The notes under the pieces are model-generated. The model was not told the origin of the DNA and ran no database searches. It saw only the letters and a list, made by a program, of their open reading frames with translations. A stretch of DNA of 64,000 bases, taken from Candidatus Oxydemutatoraceae bacterium. Its GTDB lineage: Bacteria; Pseudomonadota; Gammaproteobacteria; Poriferisulfidales; Oxydemutatoraceae. The translations under genes were made by a program, and so were the position numbers. Location of the stretch: positions 1,031,620 through 1,095,619 of the forward strand of contig OZ243040.1 in assembly GCA_965211995.1 (NCBI GenBank), given 5' to 3'. Positions 19,672-54,640 of the stretch are shown here, one piece after another; positions within the stretch are counted from its first letter, which is position 1, and each line of letters opens with the position of its first letter.

Positions 19672-19732
19672 GCAGCGCGCACGGTCGCCGCTTGGGGCGC
19701 CGTTTTGACCGCCGTTCTGAGCGGTCGCCGGG

Positions 19733-20476: not shown

Positions 20477-21402
20477 AAGTCAATGACCTGCCCGTCGTAC
20501 GACACCCGCCACCCCGCGTCCTCGACGATCCTGCGCTCGGGCGAGTCCTCGAGCAGCACCGGGTTGGTGTTGTTGACGTGGATATAGACCTTGCGCCCGA
20601 CCGCGACGTCGCGAAAGGCCGCGAGCGAACCGCCCTCGCCGTTCATGCTCATATGCCCCATCCTCGCGCCGGTCTTGTGGCCGACGCCGGCGGTGATCAT
20701 CTCGTCGTCGCGGAACAAAGTGCCGTCAAAAAGCACCAGGTCGGCACCGTCGAGACGCCGCTTCAGATCATCGGGCAAGTCGGCGCAGCCGGGGATGTAA
20801 TAGAACACGGCGTCTTGATGCAGGCTGCGGATGCGCAGGCCGACCGTGTCGCCTTCGCGGGTGCCGAAATCCGCCCCCCGGCTTGCGTCTTCCATGAACA
20901 GCGCAACCTTGCCGGGTACCGCGAAAGGCTCGATCTCGAGGCCGAGCGGCGCACCCGCGGCGTCGGCGACTTCAAACGGCGACGACAGCACAAAGGTGTC
21001 GCGCTTGACGTATTCGGGATTGAGCACGTTGAAAATCGAATTGTTCGCGAGGATTGACCGCACCCGGTCCGAGGTGTAGAGCCGGAAAGGCTCACTCTCG
21101 CGCATCGTCAGCAGCCCGGCGATATGGTCCACGTCACCGTTGGTCAGCACCACGGCCTTGATCGGGCTGCTTCTGAGGCCTTCGCGGGGATGCAGTTGCT
21201 CGGTTTGGTTGATCTGCTGGCGCAGGTCGGGCGAGCAGTTTAAGAGAACGAAGTTTTTACCGTCTGCGGTGACGGCAACGGAAGATTGGGTTCTTGAAAA
21301 AGCCCGAACACTGCCGCCCCTCGCGAGACGACAGTGTTCAGTATTACAGTTCCACTGGGGGAAACCTCCTCCGGCTGCTGCGCCCAGAACGATGATCCGC
21401 AT
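20473..21402 (-). CDS. pqqB: PQQ biosynthesis protein PqqB (metallo-beta-lactamase fold)
   Basis: MRIIVLGAAAGGGFPQWNCN...NGDVDHIAGLL, 309 aa. ATGA overlap with pqqC. Confidence 0.85.
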   Translation of the reverse strand: MRIIVLGAAAGGGFPQWNCNTEHCRLARGGSVRAFSRTQSSVAVTADGKNFVLLNCSPDLRQQINQTEQLHPREGLRSSPIKAVVLTNGDVDHIAGLLTMRESEPFRLYTSDRVRSILANNSIFNVLNPEYVKRDTFVLSSPFEVADAAGAPLGLEIEPFAVPGKVALFMEDASRGADFGTREGDTVGLRIRSLHQDAVFYYIPGCADLPDDLKRRLDGADLVLFDGTLFRDDEMITAGVGHKTGARMGHMSMNGEGGSLAAFRDVAVGRKVYIHVNNTNPVLLEDSPERRIVEDAGWRVSYDGQVIDL

Positions 21403-25418: not shown

Positions 25419-27218
25419 TTAAAGAGAGAACACAGTCAGAGCACCGCCGAGGCGGGTGTAGTCCGAAAGACGGCGATAGCCGCCCACGGCACCGAGACCG
25501 TCAGTGTCATTTGTCAGACCCGCGGCCATGCCGATGCCGGCCCAACCACCGACGCCCGACAGGATGGCAATATATTGCTTGCCCTTATGCTCGTAGGTCG
25601 TGACGTTGCCGATGATGCCCGACGGGGTTTTGAACTTGTACAGCTCTTTCCCGCTCTTGGCGTCAACCGCTTTGAGATAGCCTTCCAGCGTGCCGTAGAA
25701 AACGACACCGCCCGCCGTCGCAAGCGCGCCGCTCCAAACCGAGAATCTCTCGGGCTTGGACCAGACGATCTTGCCTTTGCTGGCGTCCCAGGCGATGAAG
25801 TTGCCCATGTGATCGCCGCCCGGGGCGGGATACATTTTCAGCGTGGCGCCGACGTACAACTGACCCACCGTGTAACTCACCCGATGCGGCTCGTAGTCCA
25901 TGCACACGTGATTCGTGGGCACGTAGAACAAACCGGTCTGAGGCGAGAAAGAAGCGGGCTGCTGGTCTTTGGTTCCCAGAGCGGCGGGGCAGATGCCCGT
26001 GGTATTCACGTCTTCACCCTGGTGACCCGTGCTGTACCTGTCCACCACCTGCGGACGACCCGTCTTCATGTCAACGTGGGTAGCCCAGTTGACCGCGGGA
26101 TCGAATTTTTCCGCGACCAGCAATTCGCCCGACTCGCGGTCCAGCGTGTAGCCGAAACCGTTGCGGTCGAAGTGCACCAGCGCTTTGCGCGTTCTCCCGT
26201 TGACCTCAATATCGGCCAGGATCATCTCGTTGATGCCGTCATAGTCCCACTCGTCGTGAGGCGTCATCTGATAAACCCATTTGGTATGGCCGGTGTCGGG
26301 GTCGCGCGCAAAAATGGTCATTGACCATTTGTTGTCGCCCGGACGCTGAACCGGATTCCACGTGCTCGGATTACCCGAGCCGTAATAAATCAAATTCAGT
26401 TCGGGGTCGTATGAAAACCAACCCCAGGTCGTGCCGCCGCCGATTTTCCATTGGTCGCCTTTCCAGGTTTTGACACCGGAATCGGTACCGACGGATTGGC
26501 CGAGATGGGTGGTCTTCGCACTCATCAGGGTGTCCGAATCGGGACCCATCGAGTAGCCGCGCCACACTCGCTTGCCGCTCTTGATGTCGTACGCGGTCAA
26601 ACTGCCGCGGACGCCGTACTCGCCGCCGCTGATGCCGACGTAGATCTTGTCGTTGACGACCATCGGCGCCGCGGTTCCGGTTTCGGCCTTGCTGACGTCA
26701 CCGTTGGTGGCGCTCCACTCGACCTTGCCGCTCTTGGCGTTCAGAGCGACCAGTTTGGTGTTGGCCTGGTACAGGAAAACCTTGCCGTCGGCGTAAGCCA
26801 ACCCGCGGTTGACGGTGTCGCAGCACAAAACCCCGACCCCGTACTCGTGCTCGAGCACTTCGGGCTGTGACGGCACGTATTCCCAAACGATCCTCGCGTC
26901 CTCGTCCAAATCGAGCGCGAACACCTTGTTCGGAAAAGGCGTGTGCACGTACATCATGCTGCCGATGATCAACGGGCCGCCTTCGTGGCCACGAAGAACT
27001 CCCGTCGAGAAAGACCAGGCAACGTTCAAGTCATTGACGTTGCCGGCGTTGATTTGATCGAGTTCAGAGTAACGGTGATTGGCGTAATTACCGGTAGGCA
27101 TCACCCACTGCTTAGCATCGTGTTGCAACTTCAGCAGTTCACTGTTTGCCTGCGCGACGGACGCCGCACCGAAACTCAGAACTATGGCGATCAGAAGAAA
27201 TTTCGTCGATATCTTCAT
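25419..27218 (-). CDS. xoxF: PQQ-dependent methanol dehydrogenase large subunit, lanthanide (XoxF) type
   Basis: 599 aa, signal peptide, the vicinal disulfide [10 protein letters not shown], and the tryptophan-docking propeller. It has DEWDYDG (Asp-x-Asp after the catalytic Asp, i.e. the lanthanide ligand). There is no mxaI small-subunit gene, and the gene order is F-G-J. Confidence 0.8.
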
Positions 27219-27536
27219 GATCGACTACCCTCCTTTATTTAAATAAAGATTCAGGCCGCTGTACCTGCAAAAACAAGGCCAAACCGCCCGAAGCCGGAAG
27301 AGAATAACACATTTTGGATATTCCTTACGGAATACGCCCGATTAGACAACCCCCGGACAGTTCCGGCCAGAATAGCCCGTACAAAAGCGTTTTTAATAGA
27401 TTATTCCGGTCTCAACGATTCCCGGCCGCCCCGTGCCCCAAGCCTCCCAATGGAGCCGGCAGCCCTGATTCTGTGAAAATGTCCCATTCTTCGTATGATA
27501 GTGCTGCAAACCGCACAGCCGGAGGCGCCAGCCCTC

Positions 27537-29231
27537 ATGCCGGATAAACCAAGCCAGCCGAGCGACATCGAAATCGCCGCGCAAGCGAAAATGCGCCGCA
27601 TCTCGGACGTCGCCGCAGAAAAACTCGGGATCGACGCCGGCGTCCTCGAACTCTTCGGCCACCACAAAGCCAAAATCCCTCTCGACTTCATCGCCTCGCT
27701 GAACGAGCGCCCGACGGGCAAGCTGATCCTGGTCACCGCGACGCACCCGACGCCGCGCGGCGAAGGCAAAACCACGACCACGATCGGCCTCGGCGACGCA
27801 CTCAATCGCATCGGCAAAAAAACGATTATGTGCATCCGCGAGCCGTCGCTGGGCCCGTGCTTCGGGATCAAGGGCGGCGCGGCCGGCGGCGGGTACGCGC
27901 AAGTCGTGCCGATGGAGGACATCAACCTGCACTTCACCGGCGATCTGCACGCGGTTTCCCTCACGCACAACCTGCTCGCGGCCCTGATCGACAATCATAT
28001 CCACCACGGCAACGCGCTCGGGCTCGACCCGCGGCGCACCAGTTGGAAACGGGTGGTTGACCTCAACGACCGCTCGCTGAGAAAAATCGTCGTCGGCCTC
28101 GGCGGCACCGTCAACGGCTACCTGCGCGAAGACGGCTTCGACATCGTCACCGCCTCCGAAGTGATGGCGATCCTGTGCCTGTCGTCGTCGCTTGCGGAGC
28201 TCAAGCGCCGCCTCGGCAGCATCGTCATCGGCTACAACTACGCGGGCGAGATGGTGCGCGCCGCCGACCTCAAGGCGCACGGCTCGATGGCCGCGCTGCT
28301 CAAGGACACGCTCAAGCCCAACCTCGTGCAGACGCTGGAGAACAACCCAACGCTGGTGCACGGCGGCCCGTTTGCGAACATCGCCCACGGCTGCAACTCG
28401 ATCATCGCGACCAAGTGCGCGCTCAAACTCGCCGACTACGTGATCACCGAAGCGGGCTTTGGCGCCGACCTCGGCGCCGAGAAGTTCTTTGATATCAAGT
28501 GCCGCAAGGCCGGCCTCGCACCCTCGCTCGCCGTCATCGTCACCACGGTGCGCGCGTTGCAGTACCACGGACATCACCACCCGCGACGCCGGGAAGCCGA
28601 CACGCTCAAAACGCTCGAAAAAGGCATCGCCAACCTCGAACGCCACATAGACAACATCCGCAACTGCTTCCAACTGCCGTGCCTGGTCGCGATCAACCGC
28701 TTCAGCGAAGACCGCGACGAGGAATTGGCCTTGATCATCGAAAAAGCGGCGGCGCACGGCGCCGAAGCGGTGATCGCCGACCACTGGGCCGGCGGCGGCG
28801 CCGGCGCCGAAGATCTCGCCCGCGCGGTGGTTGACGCGACCGCCGGCGAACCGCCGCCGCTGCAATTCGCCTACGATGAAAGAGACACCCTGTGGCAGAA
28901 AATCGAAAAAATCGCCAAGAAGATCTACGGTGCCGGCGAAGTGATCGCGGACATGAAAATACGCAACCGCATCCACTACTATCAGGAAAACGGCTACGGC
29001 CACTTCCCCGTCTGCATCGCCAAAACCCAGTACTCTTTCTCTACCGACCCGCAACTGCGGGGCGCGCCGTCCCGGCACATCGTGCGCCTCAACGACATCT
29101 CGCTGTCGGCGGGCGCCGAATTCTTCGTCGTCGGCTGCGGGCATATCCAAACCATGCCCGGTTTGCCCAGGGAGCCGGCGGCCAACTTCATAGACGTTGA
29201 CAAAGACGGCAAGATCAGCGGGCTGTTCTGA
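27537..29231 (+). CDS. fhs: Formate--tetrahydrofolate ligase
   Basis: [41 protein letters not shown], about 564 aa. Start chosen at [17 protein letters not shown]; the track ORF starts 14 codons earlier. Confidence 0.9.
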
Positions 29232-29459: not shown

Positions 29460-30518
29460 CTATCTTTCGGTAAGCATCCGTATAGAAAATCTTGCTCCTT
29501 TGCGGCATAACGATTTATTGCCAAATAAAGATGTCTGAGTTTCTGAGTGGCCGCTGTTTTTACCGTTGCCGGATTGTTCATTGAGGGTATTTCGATCCCA
29601 AAAAACGCCGTCGGAATAACCTTGTATCGCTTTGTTTAATTCCGCCATTTCCAGCCGTTTTTCGGCAAGGCAGCTATAGAGTTCATCTATTTCAATGCCC
29701 ACGTAATTTCTTCCCAGCTTTTTTGCAACAACGGAGGTAGTCCCAGAGCCGAGAAAGGGATCAAAGACGACATGACCGGGTTTTGAACTTGCGAGAAGAA
29801 TTTTTGCAATCAACTTCTCCGGTTTCTGAGTCGGATGATCCGTGTTTTCCGGCATCGACCAAAAAGGAATCGTGATATCGGTCCAAATGTTTGATGGGTG
29901 CGTCAGGCGGTATTTTCCGTTTTCCTCCTCGCTCCAATCTTTGGCTTTTCCAGAATCATCGCGATAAGGAGCGATGACCTTTCTTTTCATTTTTACCGCC
30001 GCAACGTTAAAATAATAATCTTTTGACATCGTGCAAAACCACATATCCTCAGAGTTGTTTTTCCAGTTTGTTTTTGCGCCGCGCCCTTTCTCTCTTTCAA
30101 ACGTTATGCGGTTTTGAATTTCAAAATGCTTCCCGGCAACATTGAAAATCCCCCCGGACGATTTCCAATCCCCGCAAATGTAAACAGAGGCCGTCGGCTT
30201 CAACAGGCGCACCATTTTGCTTATCCATGAATCCAGCCAGTTCTCGTATTTTTCCGATTCCATTTCCTTAAACACGGCAAGATTGAAAGTTTTATTGAGA
30301 TTATATGGAGGATCGACAAAGGCAATATCCACAAACTTATCAGGCAAATAGTCCAACACTTCAAAAGTATCCTGCTGTATTGTTTTATTCAAGACCTCAC
30401 CGACGGAAGCCGGCCCGTCAATTTTGACAAGCCGTTTCTTGTATTTAGCCCAGTCGTTATCGCTTAAATCAATGGTGCGATTGCGCGGGGCTTTTTCTTT
30501 TGGCTTTTCACTATTCAC
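29460..30518 (-). CDS. Orphan beta-class DNA methyltransferase (N6-adenine or N4-cytosine), low GC
   Basis: Motif IV DPPY (FVDPPYN) precedes motif I FDPFLGSGTT, which is the beta-class order. AT-rich codon usage. No adjacent restriction endonuclease ORF. Confidence 0.8.
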   Translation of the reverse strand: MNSEKPKEKAPRNRTIDLSDNDWAKYKKRLVKIDGPASVGEVLNKTIQQDTFEVLDYLPDKFVDIAFVDPPYNLNKTFNLAVFKEMESEKYENWLDSWISKMVRLLKPTASVYICGDWKSSGGIFNVAGKHFEIQNRITFEREKGRGAKTNWKNNSEDMWFCTMSKDYYFNVAAVKMKRKVIAPYRDDSGKAKDWSEEENGKYRLTHPSNIWTDITIPFWSMPENTDHPTQKPEKLIAKILLASSKPGHVVFDPFLGSGTTSVVAKKLGRNYVGIEIDELYSCLAEKRLEMAELNKAIQGYSDGVFWDRNTLNEQSGNGKNSGHSETQTSLFGNKSLCRKGARFSIRMLTER

Positions 30519-35382: not shown

Positions 35383-37092
35383 TCAGTGCGCCAGGGAATA
35401 CGCAATGATCTCGTTGCCGCGCTTGTAGTTCAACTGAACGTTGCCGCCGGCGGCCACGACGATGTACTGCGTGCCTTTCACGTTATACGCGGCCGGCGGC
35501 GCATTCACGCCGGCGTCGGCTTGGTCCTGCCACAACAACTCACCGGAAGTCGAGTCGTAAGCCTTGAACAGGCCGTTGCCCTCGCCGGTGAACAACAGAC
35601 CGCCGGCCGTCGCCAGAATGCCGCCGATCATCGGCTGCTCGGTCTTGACCTTCCAGGCGATTTTCCCGGTGTTGTAGTTGACCGCCGTGACGTTGCCCCA
35701 CTGCTCTTCGCTCTCGATCACCTTGAAAGCGCCGCCGAGCCAGAGTTTGCCGCCCGGATAAGGGGTTTCCTCGACGTGGTAGGTCATCGGCTGGTGCAGA
35801 TTGATCGCATACGCAAGATGCTGCGTCGGGTCAATCGCCATCGGCGACCATTCGACCCCGCCGTTGGCACCCGGCAGCATGCGCGCACCTTCGGCCGTCG
35901 GCAGCACCCAGCGATTTTCCTGCGACACCATCGGCTCGGAGAACCGGATCAGGCTGCAATCATCGGCGCGATGAACATAGACGTAGCCGGTCTTGCCGCC
36001 GTGCAGAATACCCTTGACCTTGTTGCCGCGTGCGTCCTCGACCGTCGTAATGACCGGGGGGCTGACCGCGTCCAGATCCCAAACGTCGTGGGCGATGTAC
36101 TGGAAGTGGCATTGGTATTCGCCCTTTTCGAGGTCAACCGCAACCAGCGAATTGGTGTACAGATTATCTCCGGGGCGGATCGCGCCGTACAGGTCCGGCG
36201 ACGGGTTGCCCACCATGAAATAGACCATGCCGGTCTCGCGGTCAATCGCCATGTTCTGCCACACGCCGCCACCCAGCGTTTTATACGGGTCGCCCAGTTT
36301 CTTGAGCGCCGCTTTCTCAGCCTTGATGTCGCGCAGCATATCCTTGCCGGTCGCGTCGGTCTTCGCCCAAACGCCGACCGAGTTCTCCGGAATCGTATGG
36401 AAAGTCCACAGCAGTTTGCCGGTATCGGCGGCGTAAGCCTTCACGAACCCGCGGATGCCGTATTCGCCGCCGTTGGTGCCGATCAGCACTTTGCCTTCGA
36501 CCACGGTCGGCGCCATCGTTTCGCTGTAGCCGAGTTCCGGGTCGGCAATCTGCCGCTCCCACAGCAGTCTGCCGTTGCCGGCGTCGAGCGCAACCAACTT
36601 GGCGTCGAGGGTGCCCATGAAGACCTTGCCGCCGTAAACGGCTACGCCGCGGTTATTCGGCCCGCAGCAGTAGGTCGTGATCGGCCCCATCTTGTGCTTG
36701 TAATGCCACAACTGCTCGCCGGTCGCGGCGTCCAGCGCATAGGCGTGGTTGAACGAGGTGGTGACGTACATCACGCCGTCAACGACGATCGGCGTCACCT
36801 CCATGGATTCCACCACTTCGGTTTTGAAGACCCACGCCCGTTTCAGATGCCTTACGTTGGAGCGGTCGATCTGCCGGGCACGGTAATACCGGGTCTGGCT
36901 GTAATTGCCGTTGGTGTGAAGAAAATTATTGGAGTCCCCCGCGGCATGGTCAAGCATATCCTGAGTGACCGTCCGCATATTGCCGTACAGGGTGCCACCG
37001 CCGACTTCCTCCCCCGCCCAAACGCAAACGGCGGAAAACGAAAACAGACAGCCAACCAACATCCTCCAAGTCAAAGATTGATAGCGTTTCAT
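35383..37092 (-). CDS. Second PQQ-dependent alcohol dehydrogenase (type I quinoprotein, lanthanide-type Asp; XoxF/PedH/ExaF-like)
   Basis: Signal peptide, the vicinal disulfide YCCGPNNRG, tryptophan-docking repeats, and [10 protein letters not shown] (Asp-x-Asp). Start chosen at [11 protein letters not shown]. The antisense 597-aa ORF 35347..37140 is spurious. Confidence 0.75.
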
Positions 37093-37304
37093 ACCGAAAC
37101 CCCTCCTCGGTGGTTTATTGAGAAACAAAAGAATCGCTGATTATAGCCCCAAACCCGAGACCCGCCCGCCGCCGCGGCAGTCAAAATCAACTGCCTGCCT
37201 GCAACAATATGCTAAAAATATATGTAAAATCGCATTTATGAATATTGCACCGCCTCCGCCGGAACCTTGACAACGGGAACTGCGAGTGACCGACAATAGC
37301 CGGC

Positions 37305-38301: not shown

Positions 38302-39165
38302 TTGAACTCACCGCTCACAACCGCCGGCAAAACCGCGCTGCTTGCCTGCCTGCTGTCGCTCCTGCCGTCAATTCCGGGCGCAGCCGAAGACGCCCGGCAA
38401 TTGAACTTCCGCCTGTTCGAGGCCGCCGGGAAAGGCGATTCGGATGAGGTGCGCACGCTGCTCGGTCGGGGCGCTTCGGTCAAGGCGCGCAACCGTTTCG
38501 GCAACACCGCGCTGATCTACGCCGCGCGAGGAGGACACGCCGCCGTCTTGAAGTTGCTGGTCAAACGCGGCGCGGACGTTAATCAGCCCAACCTCAACCG
38601 GGAGTCGGCTTTGATCAACGCCGCGAAGAACGGCCACTTGGAGGCCGCGAAATTCCTGATCGCCACAGGCGCGGACGTCAATCAAAACAGCCTCAGGCAC
38701 ATTACCGCGCTGACCGAAGCGGTTTACGCCGAACACGCGGCGCTGGTCAAACTGCTGCTCGCGCACGGCGCCGACGTCAACGTGATGGACAACTCGGACA
38801 AAACCGCGCTGGTGTACGCGGCGAGTCACTGCAACCGCGAGATCTTCGACGCGCTGATGGAAAACAAACCCGACGTGAACCGCCGCCTCGGCAACGATTT
38901 AACGCTGTTGATATGGGCGGCGGCGTACGGACACCGGCATTGTGTTGACCGGCTGATCCACGCGGGCGCCGAACTCGACGCACAGGACAACCGCGGACGC
39001 AACGCCGTGATGGCGGCGGCGGAAGCGGGCTTTAAGGGAGTCGTCGAATTGCTCGCCGCAAACGGCGCCCCTCTCGAAAGCCGCGATCTGCAAGGCAGCA
39101 CCGCCGCCGATTTGGCACGAGCCAACGGCAAACAAGACGTCGTGCGCTACCTCCTGTCCCGATAA
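38302..39165 (+). CDS. Secreted ankyrin-repeat protein (about 7 ANK repeats)
   Basis: A signal peptide, then repeated GNTALIYAARGGHAAVLKLLVKRGADVN-type units. Confidence 0.8.
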   Translation: MNSPLTTAGKTALLACLLSLLPSIPGAAEDARQLNFRLFEAAGKGDSDEVRTLLGRGASVKARNRFGNTALIYAARGGHAAVLKLLVKRGADVNQPNLNRESALINAAKNGHLEAAKFLIATGADVNQNSLRHITALTEAVYAEHAALVKLLLAHGADVNVMDNSDKTALVYAASHCNREIFDALMENKPDVNRRLGNDLTLLIWAAAYGHRHCVDRLIHAGAELDAQDNRGRNAVMAAAEAGFKGVVELLAANGAPLESRDLQGSTAADLARANGKQDVVRYLLSR

Positions 39166-39640
39166 AACGAGTCTCACCCCCGCGAAGCCGGCCCGGCGCC
39201 GTGTTGCCCGCCCGCAGGCATCCGCGAATGACGCGGGTTCGCCCGCCGCTTCAAGCCAGTGGCCGCACCGCGACGCACACCTTCTTTCATTGGACGTCAC
39301 CCGCTATCTTCTGAACCGATATAGCGAGTCTCACCCCCGCGAAGCCGGCCCGGCGCCGTGTTGCCCGCCCGCAGGCATCCGCGAATGACGCGGATTCAGT
39401 CCACCGCTTCAAGCCAGCGGCCGCACCGCACGCACACTTTCTTTCATTGGATGTCACCCGCTATCTTCTGAACCGATATAGCAAGTTTCACCCCCGCGAA
39501 GCCGACCCGGCGCCGTGTTGCCCGCCCGCAGGCATCCGCGAATGACGCGGGTTCAGTCCGCCGCTTCAAGCCAGCGGCCGCACCACGAAACGAGGCGTCT
39601 TTTTATTGCCGCGTCACCGTGCTCGATGATCTCCCGGCCG
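39166..39640. repeat. 155-bp tandem repeat, 3 copies, intergenic
   Basis: The unit starts (a/g)acgagtctcacccccgcgaagccggcccggcgccgtgttgcccgcccgcaggcatccgcgaatgacgcgg at 39166, 39321 and 39477. Confidence 0.75.
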
Positions 39641-43752: not shown

Positions 43753-46700
43753 CTAACCCGTGGTTAGACAACGACGGAGAGCCGTGCGCCGGCGATTGGC
43801 GCCGGAAACCAGAAAACCCATTGCCAGTATCAGCAGCCAGCCCCACTCCATTGCGCCGCCGCCGCCACCGCCGCCACCGGTGCTACCGCCACCGCCACCG
43901 CCACCGCCGCCGCCACTGCCGCCGCTCAGCGCGCTGGGGTCATGAATCACCCCGTTTCTCAATCTGTCCGCGTCATTGATGCGGCCGTCCTGGATCTCCA
44001 CCAGCAGGCACTCGTCCCCCACGTTCATGCCGGAGTCACTCGCCCGGCGCCAGATGCCGGGAAGCGACTCCCTGTCATCTCTCCGCTGCGCGTTAAGTCC
44101 GGGGCACGGCGCCGGCGCGCCGTAGTAATCATCTAACGGCGCTATCGCCCCGGTCGTGAATCGGCCGTTCCAGCCGTCTTCACCGGTGTACTTGCGCAGA
44201 CGTGCGCCGGCGAACTCCACCGCGCGCGCCAGCGGGATCACCACGCTTGCCAGGCCGCCGTTCCCTACCCCGCTCACGTGGAAATCAAACACCCCGGTCT
44301 CCGCGTAGCGCGGCGGCGTGCTGACCCCTCCGGTCGCGGCATCTACAGGCGTACTGCCGTCCGGGATCTGCGCCGACTCAGGCGCGACCTGCATCGCCGC
44401 CAAGGCATAGCCGCCGTACCCGACCCGAGGATCTCCCGTGCCGGATATCTCCAGAAACGCATTATCCCTTACCCGCAGCCGCCGAGTGCCTTCGCCAAGA
44501 TCCGGGTCGGGGCTCATCACGGGACCGAAACCAAACAAGACGTTGCCTCTCAATTGGATCCCGCACGCCAGAGAAATTCCGAGGTCCGGGTTGTCAGGGT
44601 CTATACCAAAAGTAGCGGGCACGGTTAATTCCAAGTCCAATCTCATCGCCGGCGAAAAATCCCCAAGTAGGATATTTCCATCAGACGGGAAAGTAACACT
44701 AGCCGTTCCCGTTTCCGTTGTTATCGTTATTTCAGGACTTCCGACGAAATTCTCATCCAGCCTCATGCCGTTAAAGGATACCTCCGCGGTGACGCGCTGC
44801 ACGCCGCTGCCGCGATTGGTAATGTCGGCCCCCATCATAATCACGGTCGCACCGGTATTCGCGTCAAGTGTGGCTTCGCATTGGTCAATGTTCACCGTGA
44901 AGAGCGAGGTGACATCAATATTCCTGGGGGGATCATCACCTTCGTCGATCTCATTATCGGCAACCACCGACACGAGCAGTCTTCCTGGTTCTATTTCATC
45001 CTCGCCGCTTGGGACGATGCCCCGGATCAGCACCTCGATCAAATCGCCCACCCGAATGTCGCTAACATCCAGGAAACTCACCCCCACCGCCGTTGCCGTC
45101 CCGGCGGTCGCAGGCACCGTCGCCATTCCCGGCACGCCATTGACCGTCAGCGGCGTCGTTGACACGCGGTTGCGCAGCATCGCCGTCACCTGATAGTGGA
45201 GGATGGTTTCCTCTGTGGGCCCAATCGTGAACACAAAACCCCCGCTCCCGATCGCCACCCGGGTCAAATCGGGAGGATCCGCAAAGAGCAGGACGCGGTC
45301 GGAAGAGGGCGGCGGCTCGTCCTCGACCTCGACCTCGACGTTGCCTGTTGTGACCCGCTGCGCGAGGGGAAGACCGGGCGGCACCCGACTCACCAACTCC
45401 ATGAACGGCGTGAAATCGGCAATGCGCAGCGACAGATCTGCCGTCCCCAACGTGACCTCGGCGGTCATGCGGGTGGCGGCCTGGGTCAGCGTGAGCGTAA
45501 CGGGCGGCGTGACGCCGGTAACCTCCACTTCCAACGTGAATTCGAACGACGACTCGTCCAGAATATCCTGCGACACGGCCACCGACACCGGCACCATCAC
45601 CTGCGCATTGGCGTTGGTCACCGAGTTCACCTCAAACCCCACCAGCGGCTGAACGTAGAAAATCTGTGTCCGCATCGTCAGTTCGCCGTTTACATCGGTG
45701 GCGACCCACAGCACCGACCTCAAAAACGAACCCAAATCAATAGAGCGATCATCCGCATCTCCATTGGGCCCCACCCTCGTGCAGTGTTCGTCGAGTGTTT
45801 CCAGCACTCGCACCGGCGCCGGCCCGGCAATCCTGTCCAACTCCATCCTGCACTCATCCGTGTACTCATAGGCGCGCAATTCCACGCAGCGGTCGCAACT
45901 CGTCTCCGGCACCGGTATCCGGGACGTCCGCCCCGGGCGGATAAAGATCGTTTCGCCACGGACCAACGTCCCCCCTCCCACCGTGTCAACCGTGATCACC
46001 GCTTCCGAGGCGCTCACCCTGAGTTGGAACGTCCGCATCACCGTTGAGGTCTCGCCGTCGTACGCCGAGATCGTCACCGTGTAGCCTCCCAGATCCGCGT
46101 CGTTATCCACCGTGCCGCTGACCGCGCCCGTCGCTATGCCCGTCGTCCCGTCCATCTTTGGATCGTAGGTGAGGCCGGCGGGCAGGCCGGTCACGGTCAC
46201 AGTCACCGCGTTGTTGTCCGTCGCCACGACTCGAAACGGCGTGATCGTCTGACCGCGGGAGTAGAACCTGTATCCCGGAGGCCTGTCGGCCGGGGGCATC
46301 GTAATCACCGGCGGCACACCGTTCACTCTCATTGTGAACGTCGCCACCACCGGATCGTTCACGCCGTCGTTCGCCGTGACCGTCACCAGGTAGTCCCCTG
46401 CGGCCGCGTCGTTATCCACCGTGCCGCTGACCATGCCCGTTGCCAAGTCGTAATTGAGGCCGGCGGGCAAACCGGCTACGTCCGCCGTCACCGCGTCGTT
46501 GTCCGTCACCGTGACCGGAAACGCCGTGATCGGCTGCGCCTGAGTGGTTTCTACAATGTTTTCCGGGACCGTGATCACCGGCGCCCTGTTGGTTATCGTC
46601 ATCGTGAACTGCACCTGAACCTCTGGATTCACTTGGTCGTTCACTGAGATCACCACCGTGTAGTCCTGCTCCCTGACTGTGTCGGACGCCACTGTGCCGC

Positions 46701-49098
46701 TGATTATGTCCGTCCTTGGGGTGTAGATGAGGCCGGAAGGCAGGGGGGCCACCCTCTTTCTCGCATCCGTGCCGGTGTTTGTAATCGTCAACTGCAACAC
46801 GACTGTCTCGCCCTGATCGTATTCCTGGTCCCCCGGGTGGGTGATATCCGGCGGCGCATCAATCAACGTTATGGTGAACTCCGCCATCGCGCTCTCCCCC
46901 ATCTCATCGGTCGCCGTGACCACCACCGTGGTGACCCCTATGGGCGCGTTGGGTCTCACCGTGCCGCTTACCACTATCATGCCCATGCCGTCGTTGTTGA
47001 TGGTTAGTGGTTGATCGTTGTCTGGTGTTGCGCTAAGGCCGTTGCTCGGCAAGCCGCCCACGTCCACCGTCACCACTCCGCTATCAATCACTTCGATATT
47101 GAACGGCTCAATTCTCTGGCTTTGCTTGTAAATCCTGTTCCCCGGCTCGGTGATGGTAATATCCGGCGGCGCATTCGTTATTTCTATATCAAACGCCTCC
47201 TCCGTCACCGGACTGTTCACGCCGTCGTTCGCCATGATCCTCACTGAGTAGATCTGCACCGGCGCGTTGCGCGCCACTGTGCCGCCGACATTGCCCGTCT
47301 CCGCATTGTAGTTGAGGCCGTTGGGCAAGTTGGTTACCGTCACCGTCAGCGGGTCGCCGTCATCCGTCACCGTGATCTGAAACGGCTCAATCATCTGCCC
47401 CTGGGTGAATACAAAGCCCCCCGGGCCAGTAATTTCCGGCGGCGCATTCGCCTCCACTGTCATCAGAAACGTGCTTGCCACCGCACCCTCTTCGTCTGTC
47501 GCCATAACCATCACTATGTAATCTCCCACCCGCGCGTTGTCATTCACCGTGCCGCTTATTTCCGCTCTGCCGCCGGTCAGCAGTGCAGGGTCACCTGGCG
47601 AAACCGGAACTTCAGTTGCGACGAGGCCGACGGGCAGGCTGCCGGCGTCCACGGTCACGCTGACCGGGTCGGTATCGTCCGCATGAATCACGAACGGCGT
47701 AATGTCCCGGCCCTGAGTCACACTTCTGCCATTTATCTGGTCCAGGTTGGTGAACACCGGCGGCACATTGGTCACCGTCATTTGGAATGTTGCCGTCGGC
47801 GAGTTCGCGCCGTCGTTCGCCGTCACCGTCACCGTGTAGTCCCCTGCCTGCGCGTTGCGCGCCACCCTGCCTGTCACTTCGACTGTTGCTTCACTGCCAC
47901 CGGGCGGCTGTCCGCTATTGAAACGGAATACCGGTTCGTCGAGGCCATCGGGCAGACCGTCCACCGTCACCGTCAGCAGGTCGCCGGCTATGTCCGTTAC
48001 CGTGATCGTGATCGACGGGAGGATCTCCTGCCCCTGGGTGAATTCTAAAATCTCCGTCGGGACCGTGATCACCGGCAGCGCGTTGAGCACCCTGAGGTCG
48101 AACATCACCGTCGGCGTGCTCACGCCGTCGCCCGCCGTGATTATCGCCGTGTAGGCCCTCACTTCCGCGTTGTTCTCCACCGTGCCGCCCACGCTCTCCG
48201 CCTCCGGATCATACTCAAGGCCGGCAGGCAGGTCGTCCACCGTCACCATCAGCAAGTCATCGGCTATGTCCGTCACCACGATCGGGATCGGCGGGGAAAC
48301 CGTCTCGCCCTGGGTGAATACGAAGTCCCCCGGGTCAGTAATTTCCGGCGGCGCATCGTTCACCGTCATCTGGAACGTTGCCGTCGGCGTGCTCGCGCCA
48401 TCGCCCGCCGCAATCGTCACCGTATAAGTCCCCGCTTCCGCGTTGTTCGCCACCTGGTCATCAATCGTGACCTCGACTGTGACCACGGCCACAGCCGGGG
48501 CGCCGGCCGTGCTTGTCTCCAGGCTGTGGCTGAGGCCGTCGGGCAGACCGACCACCGTCACCGTTGGTAAGTCGTTGCCAATGTCCGTCACCTGAACCGT
48601 GATCGGCGGGAAAACCGTCTCGCCCTGGGTGAACGTGAAAGTCTCCGCCGGGACAGGAATCACCGGCGGCGCATTGAGCACCGCTATGTCAAACGTTACT
48701 GGCTGGAACTCCTGCGTGCTCCCGCCCTGCTCCTCGCTCAGCCGAAAAGTCGCACTAATCGTCGTCATGTAGGTCATCGCTTCCACGTTGTTCGCCACCG
48801 TGCCGACCAATCCTTCCGTCGCCGAGTCATACTCAAGACCGGCAGGCAGACCGGTCACAGACACCATCACATTGCTAATGCCCAGCACTAGAGCGCCGTC
48901 ACTGTCGCGCACCCCCGTTAACACAATCGGGACCGGGAGAATCGTCTGGCCTTGGGTGAACACCTGGTTCCCCGGAGGAGTGATCGCGGGGCCGGGGAAT
49001 GCTTGGGCGGCGGCAAAATCAGCCTGCAACAACAAGCCGAGCGCCAAGACCGCGAAGCCGCCCGGAAATATCAGCGATAAAAGCCGCGACCGTCTCAT
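43753..49098 (-). CDS. Giant secreted adhesin-like protein (1781 aa) with 11-12 Ig-like (cadherin/He_PIG-type) repeats and a GlyGly-CTERM-like C-terminal sorting signal
   Basis: Signal peptide MRRSRLLSLIFPGGFAVLALGLLLQADFAAAQA. Repeats of about 95 aa follow (APPxIT.PG.FVFTQGETV.P..I.VTD...DLLTVTV.GLP.GLEYD....VGGTV.NNA..G.YTV.ITA.DG...PTATF.MTV.N), then a roughly 700-aa non-repetitive region. The C-terminus is SGGSGGGGGGGGGGSTGGGGGGGGAMEWGWLLILAMGFLVSGANRRRTALRR (Gly run, TM helix, Arg cluster). Confidence 0.8.
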   Translation of the reverse strand: MRRSRLLSLIFPGGFAVLALGLLLQADFAAAQAFPGPAITPPGNQVFTQGQTILPVPIVLTGVRDSDGALVLGISNVMVSVTGLPAGLEYDSATEGLVGTVANNVEAMTYMTTISATFRLSEEQGGSTQEFQPVTFDIAVLNAPPVIPVPAETFTFTQGETVFPPITVQVTDIGNDLPTVTVVGLPDGLSHSLETSTAGAPAVAVVTVEVTIDDQVANNAEAGTYTVTIAAGDGASTPTATFQMTVNDAPPEITDPGDFVFTQGETVSPPIPIVVTDIADDLLMVTVDDLPAGLEYDPEAESVGGTVENNAEVRAYTAIITAGDGVSTPTVMFDLRVLNALPVITVPTEILEFTQGQEILPSITITVTDIAGDLLTVTVDGLPDGLDEPVFRFNSGQPPGGSEATVEVTGRVARNAQAGDYTVTVTANDGANSPTATFQMTVTNVPPVFTNLDQINGRSVTQGRDITPFVIHADDTDPVSVTVDAGSLPVGLVATEVPVSPGDPALLTGGRAEISGTVNDNARVGDYIVMVMATDEEGAVASTFLMTVEANAPPEITGPGGFVFTQGQMIEPFQITVTDDGDPLTVTVTNLPNGLNYNAETGNVGGTVARNAPVQIYSVRIMANDGVNSPVTEEAFDIEITNAPPDITITEPGNRIYKQSQRIEPFNIEVIDSGVVTVDVGGLPSNGLSATPDNDQPLTINNDGMGMIVVSGTVRPNAPIGVTTVVVTATDEMGESAMAEFTITLIDAPPDITHPGDQEYDQGETVVLQLTITNTGTDARKRVAPLPSGLIYTPRTDIISGTVASDTVREQDYTVVISVNDQVNPEVQVQFTMTITNRAPVITVPENIVETTQAQPITAFPVTVTDNDAVTADVAGLPAGLNYDLATGMVSGTVDNDAAAGDYLVTVTANDGVNDPVVATFTMRVNGVPPVITMPPADRPPGYRFYSRGQTITPFRVVATDNNAVTVTVTGLPAGLTYDPKMDGTTGIATGAVSGTVDNDADLGGYTVTISAYDGETSTVMRTFQLRVSASEAVITVDTVGGGTLVRGETIFIRPGRTSRIPVPETSCDRCVELRAYEYTDECRMELDRIAGPAPVRVLETLDEHCTRVGPNGDADDRSIDLGSFLRSVLWVATDVNGELTMRTQIFYVQPLVGFEVNSVTNANAQVMVPVSVAVSQDILDESSFEFTLEVEVTGVTPPVTLTLTQAATRMTAEVTLGTADLSLRIADFTPFMELVSRVPPGLPLAQRVTTGNVEVEVEDEPPPSSDRVLLFADPPDLTRVAIGSGGFVFTIGPTEETILHYQVTAMLRNRVSTTPLTVNGVPGMATVPATAGTATAVGVSFLDVSDIRVGDLIEVLIRGIVPSGEDEIEPGRLLVSVVADNEIDEGDDPPRNIDVTSLFTVNIDQCEATLDANTGATVIMMGADITNRGSGVQRVTAEVSFNGMRLDENFVGSPEITITTETGTASVTFPSDGNILLGDFSPAMRLDLELTVPATFGIDPDNPDLGISLACGIQLRGNVLFGFGPVMSPDPDLGEGTRRLRVRDNAFLEISGTGDPRVGYGGYALAAMQVAPESAQIPDGSTPVDAATGGVSTPPRYAETGVFDFHVSGVGNGGLASVVIPLARAVEFAGARLRKYTGEDGWNGRFTTGAIAPLDDYYGAPAPCPGLNAQRRDDRESLPGIWRRASDSGMNVGDECLLVEIQDGRINDADRLRNGVIHDPSALSGGSGGGGGGGGGGSTGGGGGGGGAMEWGWLLILAMGFLVSGANRRRTALRRCLTTG

Positions 49099-49461
49099 GG
49101 GACGATGGCGCGGAAACGGGTGTTAAATTGGCACATTCGGTGGTTTCGAATCCAATCTATAAGCGCGGAACTTTACGGGAAAAAACGGCTGAAAGCAATA
49201 AACGCCCTCCCCATGCCGCCATAGACCGCGAGTTATAGCGCGGAATTTTATCACAGCCTCGTCCGGGAGGGCGCGGCTTCACAGCCCCCGACGAGGCTGT
49301 GGAAACGGCGAGAGGACGCGGAAACAGTGGCTTTCGCAACCGGTCGCCCCGGTTCCTCAAGCGGACTTGAAGCGTTGCGTATTGCCGGTGTGGAAGACTC
49401 GCCGGTTTTCCACCGCGGTCGCCGCAATCACGGCGCCGCCGGTCAAAGATTTTCGGCCACA

Positions 49462-49670
49462 GGCACCGCCCTTAAAATCAAACCCGCCGGTAAAACCGTG
49501 CAATGATTCTTGCGCCGGCACGTGAAGCATTGGATTAAAATCAAACCCGCTGATACATCTTCGCAACGATTCTTTCGTTAGCGCGTGAAACACTTGCTCA
49601 AAATCAAAACCGCCGGTAACACTTCGCAACAGCGATCCCCGCTTATTCGCAACGCCCGAAAATCAGGGGC
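49462..49670. repeat. Roughly 63-bp tandem repeat, about 3.5 copies, upstream of the adhesin gene
   Basis: The unit starts aaaatcaaa(a/c)ccgc(c/t)g(g/a)ta.....tt.gcaa.g.ttc. Track ORF 49357..49629 shows the resulting repeated GGFDF peptide, which is spurious. Confidence 0.6.
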
Positions 49671-50106
49671 CGGACAAAGATTTGAGCAGCCCCAGACAGG
49701 CGTCTTCGACAAAGTCCAGCACCGTGTCGTATCCGCGCCCCCCGTCCGTGAACAGCACCTCCTCCGCGTCGAACGCGCGTGAGTATTCCATCAGCAGGCC
49801 GGCGCGCGCGCCCTGCGCCCGCACGCACAGCAAGTTGTCCTTGTCGGCGGCGAGAATCAGATCAAACCGCGCGGCGGCGGTGAACGGACACGAGCGCAGT
49901 CCCGACAGGTCATAGCCGCGCAACGCCGCCGTCGCGCACATCTTCGGGTCCGGCAGGCAACCCGGCAATGCGTGCGTGCCCGCCGAAGCCACTCGCATCG
50001 CAAGCCCCGCGTTCTCGCTCAGATAACGAAACACCGCCTCGGCCGCAATCGAGCGGCAGATATTCTGCGAGCAGACGAACAACACGGATCGAGCGGACTT
50101 AAACAT
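49663..50106 (-). CDS. Low-molecular-weight protein-tyrosine phosphatase (or arsenate-reductase-like LMW-PTP)
   Basis: MFKSARSVLFVCSQNICRS is the CX5R P-loop. 147 aa from Met 50106; the 227 N-terminal codons of the track ORF are antisense to epmA and spurious. Confidence 0.8.
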   Translation of the reverse strand: MFKSARSVLFVCSQNICRSIAAEAVFRYLSENAGLAMRVASAGTHALPGCLPDPKMCATAALRGYDLSGLRSCPFTAAARFDLILAADKDNLLCVRAQGARAGLLMEYSRAFDAEEVLFTDGGRGYDTVLDFVEDACLGLLKSLSGP

Positions 50107-50195
50107 CGGCCCAGTCGAAGCGGCAGAGACTCTGCGGACAAACGAACAACACGGATCGGGTGGACTCAGGCATCGGCCCAGTCGAAAGCAAGTGT
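50075..50195. repeat. Roughly 65-bp direct duplication of the epmA stop / PTP start junction
   Basis: acgaacaacacggatcg(a/g)g(c/t)ggact(t/c)a(a/g)(a/g)catcggcccagtcgaa appears twice. One copy keeps the epmA TGA and the other keeps the PTP ATG. Confidence 0.65.
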
Positions 50196-51711: not shown

Positions 51712-52722
51712 TTGATGAACGACCGCTGGCAACAAGAATTGCAAAACTCGGTCACGCGCGTCGCCGATCTTTTGCACGCGCTCGAACTCGACCCCGACGA
51801 GTTGCCGTTCGCCCGCGATATCAAAGACTTCCCGACGCGGGTGCCGCGCCCTTATCTCGCGCGCATACGCAAGCGCGACGCCGGCGACCCGCTGCTGCGC
51901 CAGGTGCTGCCGGTCGCCGACGAGACCATTCATTCCCCCGGATACGCCGTTGATCCGGTCGGCGATCTCGGCGCGCACCGCGGCGGCGGCGTCCTGCACA
52001 AATACCACGGCCGGGTGCTGCTGGTCGTCACCGGCGCCTGCGCGATCCACTGCCGCTACTGCTTCCGCCGCCACTTCCCCTACGCCGGGCACGCGCTCGC
52101 ACGCAGCCTCGACCGCGCGCTCGCCTACGTCGCGCGCGACGCGAGCGTCGAGGAAGTCATTCTGAGCGGCGGCGACCCGCTGAGCCTGAGCAACCCGCGG
52201 CTGTTTGAGTTGTGCCGGCGGATCGAAAGCATCGCCCACGTACGGCGCATCCGCATACACACCCGCCTGCCGATCGTCGTGCCGTCGCGTCTGGAAGACG
52301 AGTTATGCAACTGGCTCAACCGCCGCCCGAAACGCTACCTCGTGGTCTTCCACATCAACCATCCGGCGGAGATCGCAACCGACGTCGAGCGCGCGGTATC
52401 ACGCCTGACGGCGCCGACGCTGATGAACCAGGCGGTGCTGCTCAAAGGCGTGAACGACGACGCCCGCACCCTCGCCGACCTGAGCCGCAAGTGCTTCGGC
52501 GCGGGCATTTTGCCGTATTACCTGCACCTGCTCGACCGCGTGCGGGGCGCGGCGCATTTCGAAGTCGACGCGGCGCGCGCGCAGGCGCTGATGCGCGAAC
52601 TTGCAACCCTGCTTCCGGGGTATCTCGTACCGCGGCTTGCACGCGACGACGGCGGCCCCTCAAAACAATTCCCGCTGCAACACGCCGGCAGTGAACGCCC
52701 GCGTCCTTCGCGCACAACTTGA
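51712..52722 (+). CDS. epmB: EF-P beta-lysylation protein EpmB (lysine 2,3-aminomutase-like radical SAM, YjeK)
   Basis: CAIHCRYCFRR is the radical-SAM motif. The C-terminus LPGYLVPRLARDDGGPSKQFPL matches the YjeK end. It is divergent from efp-epmA. Confidence 0.88.
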   Translation: MMNDRWQQELQNSVTRVADLLHALELDPDELPFARDIKDFPTRVPRPYLARIRKRDAGDPLLRQVLPVADETIHSPGYAVDPVGDLGAHRGGGVLHKYHGRVLLVVTGACAIHCRYCFRRHFPYAGHALARSLDRALAYVARDASVEEVILSGGDPLSLSNPRLFELCRRIESIAHVRRIRIHTRLPIVVPSRLEDELCNWLNRRPKRYLVVFHINHPAEIATDVERAVSRLTAPTLMNQAVLLKGVNDDARTLADLSRKCFGAGILPYYLHLLDRVRGAAHFEVDAARAQALMRELATLLPGYLVPRLARDDGGPSKQFPLQHAGSERPRPSRTT

Positions 52723-52880
52723 TCCACCCGTGCCGAGGCTTGCACGCGACGACGGCGGCCCTTCAAAACAATTCCCGCTGCAACACGCCGGCAGTGAACG
52801 CCCGCGTCCTTCGCGCACAACTTGATCCACCCGTGCCGAGGCTTGCACGCGACGACGGCGGCTCTTCAAAGCAGTCCTCG
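52632..52880. repeat. 102-bp tandem repeat, about 2.5 copies, duplicating the last roughly 30 codons of epmB
   Basis: cttgcacgcgacgacggcgg.c.ttcaaaacaattcccgctgcaacacgccggcagtgaacgcccgcgtccttcgcgcacaacttgatccacccgtgccgagg is repeated. Track ORFs 52601..52825 and 52719..53468 re-encode ...VPRLARDDGGPSKQ.... Confidence 0.7.
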
Positions 52881-53173: not shown

Positions 53174-54058
53174 TTACCTCCGCTCGAGTGCGCCGATGCG
53201 CTCGGCGAGCGGTGGATGGCTCATGAACAGGCGCTTCAGCCCCGTAGCGCCGCCGCCCCTGATGCCGAAAGCCGCGAACTGCTTCGGCAGGTCGGGGGTT
53301 TCGTGCACCGCTTGCAGGCGCTTGAGCGCGGCGATCATCCGGTCGCGTCCCGCGAGGCGCGCACCGCCCTCGTCGGCACGGAATTCACGGCGGCGTGAAA
53401 ACCACATAACGATAGTCGTCGCCAGGATCGACAAGACGATCTGCGCGAGGATCGAAGTGATGAAGTAGGCCGGACCGTAGCCGTGTTGCGATCTGAACAC
53501 CACGCGGCTCACGATATGGCCGATGATGCGCGACAGGAAAATCACGAACGTATTGATCACGCCCTGGATCAGGGTCAGCGTCACCATATCGCCGTTGGCG
53601 ACGTGGCTGATCTCGTGGCCGAGCACCGCCTCGACCTCGCCGGGTTCCAGCGTGTGCAACAGCCCCTCGCTGACCGCGACCAGCGCCTTGTTGCGGAACA
53701 TCCCGGTTGCGAACGCGTTCGGCTGCGACGACGGAAAAACCCCGACTTCGGGCCTCGCGATGCCCGCGGCTTCGGCCTGCCGTGCGACCGTATCAAGCAG
53801 CCATTTTTCCTTGCCGCCGCCCGGCCCGGCGATGACTCTGACACCCAGCGAGCGCTTCGCCATCGCCTTCGACATCGCGAGCGAAATAAAGGCGCCGGAC
53901 ATGCCGAACGCCGCCGAGATGATCAGCAAACCGGTCAGGTTGAGATCCGATCCGCTTCTTAAGAGCAGGTTTTCAACGCCGAACAGGCTCAGCGTAATGT
54001 TCAATACGAACAAAACCGCGAGGTTGGTCGCCATCAGCAAAGCGATCCTTGTCAACAT
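53174..54058 (-). CDS. htpX: Protease HtpX (M48 zinc metalloprotease, membrane)
   Basis: HEISHVANGD is HExxH. Four TM segments. 294 aa. Confidence 0.9.
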   Translation of the reverse strand: MLTRIALLMATNLAVLFVLNITLSLFGVENLLLRSGSDLNLTGLLIISAAFGMSGAFISLAMSKAMAKRSLGVRVIAGPGGGKEKWLLDTVARQAEAAGIARPEVGVFPSSQPNAFATGMFRNKALVAVSEGLLHTLEPGEVEAVLGHEISHVANGDMVTLTLIQGVINTFVIFLSRIIGHIVSRVVFRSQHGYGPAYFITSILAQIVLSILATTIVMWFSRRREFRADEGGARLAGRDRMIAALKRLQAVHETPDLPKQFAAFGIRGGGATGLKRLFMSHPPLAERIGALERR

Positions 54059-54640
54059 AGCGCATCCTCCACTTCGAGACGGTCAATGCTGCGGCAGCTC
54101 TGAGGCAACTTGTGCCCGCGCCGCAATGTTCAATACGAACAAAACCGCGAGGTTGGTCGCCATCAGCAAAGCGATCCTTGTCAACATAGCGCGTCCTCCA
54201 CTCCGAGACGGTCAACGCTGCGGCAGCCCTGAGGCATCTTGCGCCCGCGCCGCAATGTTCAACACGAACAAAACCGCGAGATCAGTCGCCATCAGCAAAG
54301 CGATCCTCATCAGCATAGCGCGTCCTCCACTTCGAGACGGTCAACGCTGCGGCAGCCCTGAGGCAACTTGTGCCCGCGCCGCAATGTTCAACACGAACAA
54401 AACCGCGAGATCAGTCGCCATCAGCAAAGCGATCCTCATCAGCATAGCGCGTCCTCCACTTCGAGACGGTCAACGCTGCGGCAGCCCTGAGGCAACTTGT
54501 GCCCGCGCCGCAATGTTCAACACGAACAAAACCGCGAGATCAGTCGCCATCAGCAAAGCGATCCTCGTCAGCATAGCGCGTCCTCCACTTCGAGACGGTC
54601 AACTTTGCGGCAGCCCTGAGGCAACTTGCGCCCGCGCTGC
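54057..54640. repeat. 129-bp (43-codon) tandem repeat, about 4.5 copies, duplicating the htpX promoter-proximal region and first roughly 20 codons
   Basis: The unit boundaries, marked by atagcgcgtcctccact(t/c)cgagacgg, are at 54057, 54186, 54315, 54444 and 54573. On the minus strand each unit contains ATG CTG ATG AGG ATC GCT TTG CTG ATG GCG ACT GAT CTC GCG GTT TTG TTC GTG TTG AAC ATT GCG ... TGA. That is a 34-aa [37 protein letters not shown], which is a copy of the HtpX TM1. Confidence 0.8.

Follow-up and report, generated by a model that had tools for sequence, protein, structure and literature searches.

A divergent, long-spacer GlyGly-type tail on a large Ig-repeat protein of a Candidatus Oxydemutatoraceae bacterium: a candidate rhombosortase substrate outside the curated cut-off

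The C-terminal sorting signals of Gram-negative bacteria decide which proteins are displayed at the surface, and they are annotated almost wholly by short hidden Markov models (HMMs). A 64-kb stretch of contig OZ243040.1 from a Candidatus Oxydemutatoraceae bacterium (64,000 nucleotides; hereafter the window) carries a gene for a 1781-residue protein with immunoglobulin (Ig)-like repeats (hereafter the target), which a preliminary description regarded as a candidate rhombosortase substrate on account of its C-terminus. The question raised by this locus is whether a tail with the architecture of the published manual definition of the GlyGly-CTERM signal, yet with a score below the cut-off of the curated model for it, is such a signal or something else. 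The reading favored here, with moderate confidence, is that the target is a rhombosortase substrate whose GlyGly-type tail is divergent, has a long spacer and falls outside the curated cut-off.

The open reading frame (ORF) is uninterrupted, and its extent and length are exactly those first reported; translation places it on the minus strand, which had been left unstated. GC content by codon position (GC1 0.62 > GC2 0.48, GC3 0.76, in a window of 62% GC) fits a real coding frame, and a public protein collection holds an identical protein (P0001); a whole-protein scan of genome contigs that required near-identical peptides returned no relative. The ORF is real and large, and its product is presumably a secreted Ig-repeat protein exposed at the surface of a Gram-negative cell, by analogy with the proteins discussed below. 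The parts of the gene that concern the tail are as follows.

43753..49098, minus strand: whole gene, 1781 codons plus stop (ORF list and translation).
43855..43923, minus strand: Gly-rich linker, residues 1726-1748 (23 residues), GGSGGGGGGGGGGSTGGGGGGGG (translation).
43795..43854, minus strand: transmembrane (TM) helix of the sorting tail, residues 1749-1768, AMEWGWLLILAMGFLVSGAN (hydrophobic segment; helix in the AlphaFold2 (AF2) model).
43753..43794, minus strand: basic cluster and cytoplasmic end, residues 1769-1781, RRRTALRRCLTTG, plus stop (translation).

The protein ends in ...GGSGGGGGGGGGGSTGGGGGGGGAMEWGWLLILAMGFLVSGANRRRTALRRCLTTG before the stop codon, which can be divided as ...HDPSALS-GGSGGGGGGGGGGSTGGGGGGGG-AMEWGWLLILAMGFLVSGAN-RRR-TALRRCLTTG. 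The tail quoted in the preliminary description was correct as far as it went, translation adding five further residues (CLTTG) at the end, and the architecture proposed there, a Gly run followed by a TM helix and a basic cluster, is borne out. The last Gly residues of the linker form the Gly-Gly signature; according to tandem repeat finder, the DNA of the linker contains a CCGCCA-type array at 43856-43925. An alignment of 20 homologs shows column-by-column conservation of a Gly-Gly-x-Gly-Ala signature and of the Trp-Leu that starts the helix; three Gly are invariant or nearly so, one Leu is invariant, the basic cluster is also kept, and the motif of the clade reads GG[GS]GA[MIL][DENG]xxWL. The 869-aa paralog P0007 has a tail, GGGGGGVIEWGWLWVLAMGLLAATGGRRR, that is nearly identical to that of the target, and this near-identity together with the column-wise conservation places the tail beyond chance. 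The target, P0002 (1743 aa) and P0007 have both the tail and the domain that precedes it in common; each is recorded on a contig of 1,943,614 bp, and the three are probably on one and the same contig. About 20 relatives from metagenome-assembled genomes (MAGs) of Chromatiales and Ca. Oxydemutatoraceae share the tail, and related MAG contigs carry several such proteins each. For a sorting signal one would expect a many-to-one pattern, and retention of the tail in the paralogs and in some 20 relatives is such a pattern.

The tail can be set against the published definition of GlyGly-CTERM. Sub-threshold instances were accepted by Haft and Varghese (PMC3237569) if they were C-terminal and tripartite, with at least one Gly, no Cys and one or more basic residues, the further condition being homology that runs into trusted GlyGly-CTERM instances. 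The target tail, ...GGGGGGGG-AMEWGWLLILAMGFLVSGAN-RRRTALRRCLTTG followed by the stop, shows each of these architectural features; the last basic pair (RR) has five residues after it and RRR has ten, compared with 0-5 in the published set. Published GlyGly-CTERM helices stand out for their high content of Leu (34%), Gly (13%) and Ala (10%; PMC3237569), and the helices of 20 clade sequences match that composition (Leu 32%, Ala 15%, Gly 10%, Ile 6%, Val 6%). As for homology, relatives of the domain that precedes the target tail occur in Shewanella, Enterovibrio, Thalassotalea and Oleiphilaceae, where the tails after them are bona fide GlyGly-CTERM (17-28 bits with the GlyGly-CTERM model TIGR03501); the linkers differ in length, Cys-type tails also follow this domain, and the homology therefore cannot be traced without ambiguity through the tail.

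Compared with the GlyGly-CTERM/rhombosortase system of VesB (TIGR03501/TIGR03902), the target is alike in having at its extreme C-terminus a Cys-less Gly signature, a single helix rich in Leu, Gly and Ala and a basic cluster, with the passenger attached through a disordered linker, a genome that has several substrates, and homologous passenger-proximal domains that elsewhere bear bona fide GlyGly-CTERM tails beside rhombosortase genes. It differs in its score, in a helix that is about five residues longer, in the characteristic start of the helix (A-M-E-W-G-W / A-[MI]-[DE]-P-x-W), in a much longer Gly run of 23 residues, and in its passenger, which is a huge Ig-repeat protein and not a hydrolase. 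Between Gly-Gly and the first basic residue, members of the target clade have 19-21 residues (20 in the target) and tails that pass TIGR03501 have 13-16; the spacing forms a continuum of 13-22 residues.

The domain directly before the linker accounts for nearly all of the 86 matches in an exhaustive HMMER search of 1.84 billion representative sequences, for which the Gly run was left out of the query.

43924..44316, minus strand: pre-anchor beta-sandwich of the choice-of-anchor U family, residues ~1595-1725, ending ...CLLVEIQDGRINDADRLRNGVIHDPSALS.

In the target this domain scores 28.2 bits with the choice-of-anchor U model NF041766 (cut-off 32), with profile positions 49-90 alone matched; the paralogs P0002 (42.4 bits) and P0007 (41.1 bits) are both above the cut-off and are 48-49% identical to the target over the domain. 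The likeness to NF041766 proteins lies in the last folded domain and in the varying anchor types that follow it; the differences are that the target copy is under the cut-off, that a further pair of Cys (APCP ... GDxC) is conserved in its clade, and that the clade carries an insert outside the 92-position model. AF2 modeling from the 20-sequence alignment gives the domain a predicted local distance difference test (pLDDT) score of ~90 and places a helix at residues 1752-1778; the Gly run between them scores below 50, consistent with disorder. A search of the "choice-of-anchor" literature found no paper on the U family by title or abstract.

The partners of this domain family were surveyed in 160 loci recovered with the domain alignment from GTDB genomes and JGI metagenomes, the closest being from uncultured Chromatiales and from a complete chromosome of Ca. 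Oxydemutatoraceae (OZ245010.1) on which five copies lie. Among the 166 ORFs with the domain, 59 have GG-type and 48 have Cys-type tails, 43 finish with an extra domain or with a beta-barrel-like sequence, and 14 have other helices; the domain truly takes a choice of anchors. Rhombosortases were sought with a motif search derived from the literature and then with a local HMM built from 38 rhombosortases, and their genes were found in three loci only. In L082, a rhombosortase gene (TIGR03902 150.9 bits, cut-off 84) lies 94 bp downstream of a gene for a GlyGly-CTERM protein, and in L118, a relative of L082, the distance is ~180 bp. In L009, a rhombosortase gene (117.4 bits) lies 3.9 kb downstream of that for a 922-aa homolog whose tail, GGSGALDRWWLIMLAPLLLTHRRFR, has a motif resembling that of the target and, like the target, no acceptable match to TIGR03501. 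The 48 Cys-type loci contain no rhombosortase; instead, a choice-of-anchor U protein with a Cys-type tail is followed directly by a gene for MrtJ in one gammaproteobacterial MAG (L047 10511-10969; 80.6 bits, cut-off 75) and by an Mrt-core match in another (L010 471-1097). The choice-of-anchor U family is shared between two sorting systems, and tail type tracks the type of the neighboring enzyme, with rhombosortase near GG-type tails and myxosortase-family proteases beside Cys-type tails; the target is of the Cys-less type.

Two further observations concern these loci. A rhomboid gene beside a Cys-type tail in L050 was considered as a rhombosortase and rejected, since it is GlpG-like and scores 57 bits with TIGR03902 (cut-off 84). 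Two ORFs stand between the GG-tail protein and the rhombosortase of L009 (10396-13320): one of 324 aa is outer-membrane-protein-like, with weak similarity to a PEP-CTERM-system outer membrane protein, and the other, of 648 aa, has three or more CxxCH motifs and an N-terminal Cys. Both could be accessory components of a locus dedicated to sorting.

Several results weigh against the assignment to rhombosortase. TIGR03501, which the preliminary description had proposed as a check, gives the target tail 9.0 bits, short of the cut-off of 15.5 and confined to profile positions 1-17 of 22; close homologs also fall short (8.6-12.5 bits), and longer fragments of the target tail give no match at all. 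The model fails because the basic cluster, which lies beyond a helix about five residues longer, is out of reach of its 22-position profile. The window contains no rhomboid or rhombosortase gene, as had been stated before and as is now found by a screen of multi-TM ORFs and by the local rhombosortase HMM on all ORFs of at least 80 aa. None was found in ±10 kb around the loci of P0004, P0005 and P0011 and five Oxydemutatoraceae and two Chromatiales loci (~200 kb in total), those of P0004, P0005 and P0011 having housekeeping neighbors and no sorting enzyme, and none of the 120 rhombosortase matches listed of 1702 is on the contig of the target or of its near relatives. Flanks free of rhombosortase are what would be expected if one enzyme serves many unlinked substrates, which is not positive evidence for such an enzyme. 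The adjacency itself comes from three loci, two of them closely related, with a rough estimate of 3/59 GG-type against 0/105 other loci (P ~0.05), and the L009 tail, with a spacing of ~17 residues, lies between the classes and outside the 19-21 of the target clade. Lastly, the pre-anchor domain takes several anchors, and therefore domain homology alone does not fix the type of the tail.

Among the relatives from Chromatiales and Oxydemutatoraceae, large GG-tail proteins of five loci (L002, L003, L007, L008, and L083) are found in conserved synteny with genes for an M48-TPR peptidase and with tusA, ilvH, ilvC, pssA, and leuA; L002 also has an insertion of six small DUF16/DUF2730-like genes. The context of the target gene differs from this arrangement. 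A 259-aa membrane protein that recurs among the multi-TM neighbors in 80 loci (NCBIfam search) was examined as a sorting enzyme and rejected, being PssA in conserved ilvH-ilvC-pssA-leuA synteny.

Could the tail belong to another known system, MYXO-CTERM or JDVT-CTERM with a myxosortase, PEP-CTERM with an exosortase, IPTL-CTERM, or LPXTG with a sortase? This is close to refuted. MYXO-CTERM (TIGR03901) is the best-scoring curated model (14.9-16.9 bits), its tails share with the target the tripartite order of Gly-rich stretch, helix and RRR, and many homologs of the pre-anchor domain have Cys-type tails beside myxosortase-family CPBP proteases; but the score is under the cut-off of 20 and covers only profile positions 9-32, a stretch that skips the part where the invariant signature Cys is expected. 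The Myxococcus-type signal always has a Cys and the GlyGly type never does (PMC3237569), the target has none before or within the helix, and proteases of the myxosortase family were found only beside Cys-type tails. The models for PEP-CTERM (TIGR02595, cut-off 16 bits), LPXTG and IPTL report nothing on the target tail, in which neither an IPTL nor an LPXTG motif is present and whose last 60 residues have no PEP motif, and among the multi-TM ORFs of the window none was seen that resembles an exosortase or a CPBP protein; the preference for a GlyGly-type tail over PEP-CTERM and LPXTG in the preliminary description stands. It is unlikely, too, that the helix is a plain, uncleaved stop-transfer anchor, which would leave the target in the inner membrane and its repeats in the periplasm, or from which the protein would be released by non-specific proteolysis of the linker. 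A helix with a basic cluster suffices for membrane anchoring, cleavage of the target and its close relatives is argued by analogy, and V. cholerae GlpG can cut the VesB linker without RssP (PMC13393428). A generic anchor, on the other hand, would not be expected to keep Gly-Gly-x-Gly-Ala and Trp-Leu over ~20 divergent proteins and three paralogs, nor to show the bias toward Leu, Gly and Ala, and a 1781-residue Ig-repeat protein confined to the periplasm would seem to have no obvious role.

The remaining alternative shares with the favored reading the premise that the tail is a processing signal and differs in the enzyme: the tail would be a sister class to GlyGly-CTERM that is recognized by some other dedicated enzyme, maybe another intramembrane protease. 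Such a protease would be in keeping with the A[MI][DE]PxW motif and the greater length of the helix, spacing is systematically longer than in TIGR03501-passing tails, every curated tail model fails on the target and its close relatives, the ~200 kb of flanks yielded no rhombosortase, and choice-of-anchor U demonstrably pairs with more than one sorting system. Against this, spacing is a continuum rather than two classes, L009 pairs a tail of similar motif with a nearby rhombosortase, the helix composition is that of GlyGly-CTERM, and no alternative enzyme recurs in the flanks, where the multi-TM neighbors are transporters and a PssA-type phosphatidyltransferase in conserved housekeeping synteny. 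On balance a different enzyme appears improbable, and the stronger claim, that GG[GS]GA[MI][DE]PxWL with ~15 hydrophobic residues and RRR marks a separate, undescribed sorting system with an enzyme of its own and is not a rhombosortase signal, is improbable as well. Its milder version, a class of rhombosortase signal systematically missed by TIGR03501, is more likely.

If the target is a rhombosortase substrate, its route can be sketched from VesB of V. cholerae and its relatives, the only proteins for which rhombosortase cleavage and surface localization dependent on a type II secretion system (T2SS) are known (PMC13393428, PMC6219818). The N-terminal signal peptide would take the protein through Sec, and the C-terminal helix with RRR would hold it in the inner membrane with its body in the periplasm. 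Rhombosortase (RssP/RrtA in the VesB system) would then cut just after Gly-Gly, and the new C-terminus would probably be joined to a glycerophosphoethanolamine-type lipid. The lipid-tethered protein would be moved to the outer surface, probably by the T2SS, where the choice-of-anchor U beta-sandwich would sit beside the membrane on a flexible tether formed by the disordered Gly run, and the ~520-residue region and ten Ig-like domains described below would extend outward and form a stalk or an array for binding. It is on analogy with VesB that cleavage, lipidation, transport by the T2SS, exposure at the surface and an adhesive role are all attributed to the target; the architecture, the conservation of the tail, the pre-anchor domain family and the pairing of tail type with protease in related loci are observed. 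In two loci of Steroidobacteraceae (L165 3969-10618 and L166), a rhombosortase gene and a type II secretion cluster (gspG-H-I-J-K-L-M-N) stand head to head; this arrangement links the two systems directly at the genomic level and fits the T2SS step.

The main value of these results is for curation, in pointing to a tail class that TIGR03501 misses in Chromatiales-related lineages, with a small chance of a separate sorting system. Because the longer helix puts the tail under the cut-off, automatic annotation would miss the sorting signal on large surface proteins, and a missed class could make genomes seem to have a rhombosortase without a substrate. Haft and Varghese (PMC3237569) listed just such a case in the Chromatiales, the genome of Thioalkalivibrio HL-EbGr7, which has a rhombosortase and no detected GlyGly-CTERM protein; this listing fits a tail class missed by the model in that order, and the favored reading, if true, would account for genomes reported in this way. 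A clade-specific tail model would correct the misses and would give a cleaner phylogenetic profile for deciding between rhombosortase and another enzyme.

The rest of the protein is of a fairly ordinary kind, an Ig-repeat surface protein that may be an adhesin, from a methylotroph lineage of uncultured type. It comprises the following parts.

49000..49098, minus strand: signal peptide (predicted Sec), residues 1-33, MRRSRLLSLIFPGGFAVLALGLLLQADFAAAQA, next residue F (read from the sequence).
46015..48993, minus strand: ten tandem He_PIG (PF05345) Ig-like domains, residues 36-1028 (Pfam and an HMM derived from the repeats).
44464..46014, minus strand: near-orphan beta-rich region, residues 1029-1545, ~520 aa (HMMER, BLASTP and AF2).

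Judged by eye, residues 1-33 look like a Sec signal peptide, with an n-region that is basic, then a hydrophobic core and an A-x-A site (A-Q-A). The tandem repeats of ~95 aa that had been described are present and are He_PIG domains (147.5 bits, E 1.6e-43, 9 stretches; gathering score 24 bits); the earlier count of 11-12 was too high, as an HMM built from the target's own repeats finds exactly 10 domains (E 1e-28 to 1e-38) and none past residue 1028. Each is 88-107 aa long, pairwise identity is 28-59%, and at the DNA level the repeat families have a spacing of 270-318 bp. The target resembles He_PIG or cadherin-like Ig-repeat surface proteins in carrying ten ~95-aa domains after a signal peptide; it differs in lacking a visible repeats-in-toxin (RTX) or type I secretion signal, autotransporter barrel or LPXTG motif, and in that its anchoring would depend on a C-terminal sorting tail. 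Its designation as an adhesin is suggested by the Ig-like repeats.

The large region after the repeats had been described as unassigned, and it is: Pfam and NCBIfam give only the sub-threshold choice_anch_U match there, and the PDB holds no sequence relative. In the exhaustive HMMER search, relatives of residues 1029-1545 were confined to P0002, P0003, P0005, P0047, and P0085, and residues ~1393-1547, the last ~150 of this region, had no detectable homolog; residues 1048-1389 are 32% identical to P0002 by BLASTP. Structure prediction, suggested earlier for residues 1050-1750, resolves the beta-sandwich at its C-terminal side; an AF2 model of residues 1028-1600 from a five-sequence alignment has a mean pLDDT of 46, too low a value for a fold search, its first ~230 residues alone reaching 60-80, mostly as strands.

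The neighbors of the target gene are housekeeping genes, with serS and a Na+/H+ exchanger gene on one side and, on the other, a low-molecular-weight (LMW) phosphatase-like gene, epmA, efp, epmB, htpX, and parC. The gene had been described as flanked by tandem arrays of 58 bp x4 and 63 bp x3.5 and by a miniature inverted-repeat transposable element; both arrays exist with other dimensions, and five more were found in the window. The features (none assigned to a strand) are as follows.

43385/43411-43596: 50-bp tandem array, ~4 copies, 3' of the target gene (tandem repeat search).
49471..49630: 63-bp tandem array, 2.5-3 copies, 5' of the target gene, between it and the LMW-phosphatase-like gene.
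49252..49301: palindrome with 16-nt arms and an 18-nt loop, 5' intergenic, occurring once in the window.
18862-19494: tandem array, 245-bp unit.
39145-39588: tandem array, 157-bp unit.
50039-50186: tandem array, 67-bp unit.
52626-52870: tandem array, 103-bp unit.
53996-54637: tandem array, 129-bp unit.

The 50-bp array has four exact-core matches, where none is expected by chance, and is probably not part of the function of the target gene. All seven long-unit arrays lie at gene boundaries and have unrelated units, 2.2-5 copies and 75-97% matches, and several span gene starts or ends (the start of pqqE, the junction of the LMW-phosphatase-like gene and epmA, the end of epmB, and the start of htpX). 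This density of junction duplications is unusual; with seven such arrays in the window, those that flank the target gene say nothing specific about it. The transposable element was not confirmed: the sole candidate is the single palindrome, which has no T-run after it on either strand, and no other sign of a mobile element was seen there. Around the target gene, sites resembling promoters and terminators are no commoner than in shuffled sequence.

Elsewhere in the window, pqqB/C/D/E-like genes (pqqD identified by eye), genes for two beta-propellers like alcohol/methanol dehydrogenases dependent on pyrroloquinoline quinone (PQQ), and a formate-tetrahydrofolate ligase gene occur at 17791-21402, 25419-29231, and 35383-37128; this set looks like one for methylotrophy and suggests a methylotrophic gammaproteobacterium. 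A low-GC island (47% compared with ~62%) at 8000-12000, which includes a gene for an AAA_15/AAA_21 (AbiEii-like) ATPase (8247-9668) and a 476-aa ORF with no assignment (11296-12726), was probably acquired horizontally and may be defense-related, and a gene for an N6/N4 DNA methylase (PF01555) lies in a lower-GC stretch at 29460-30518.

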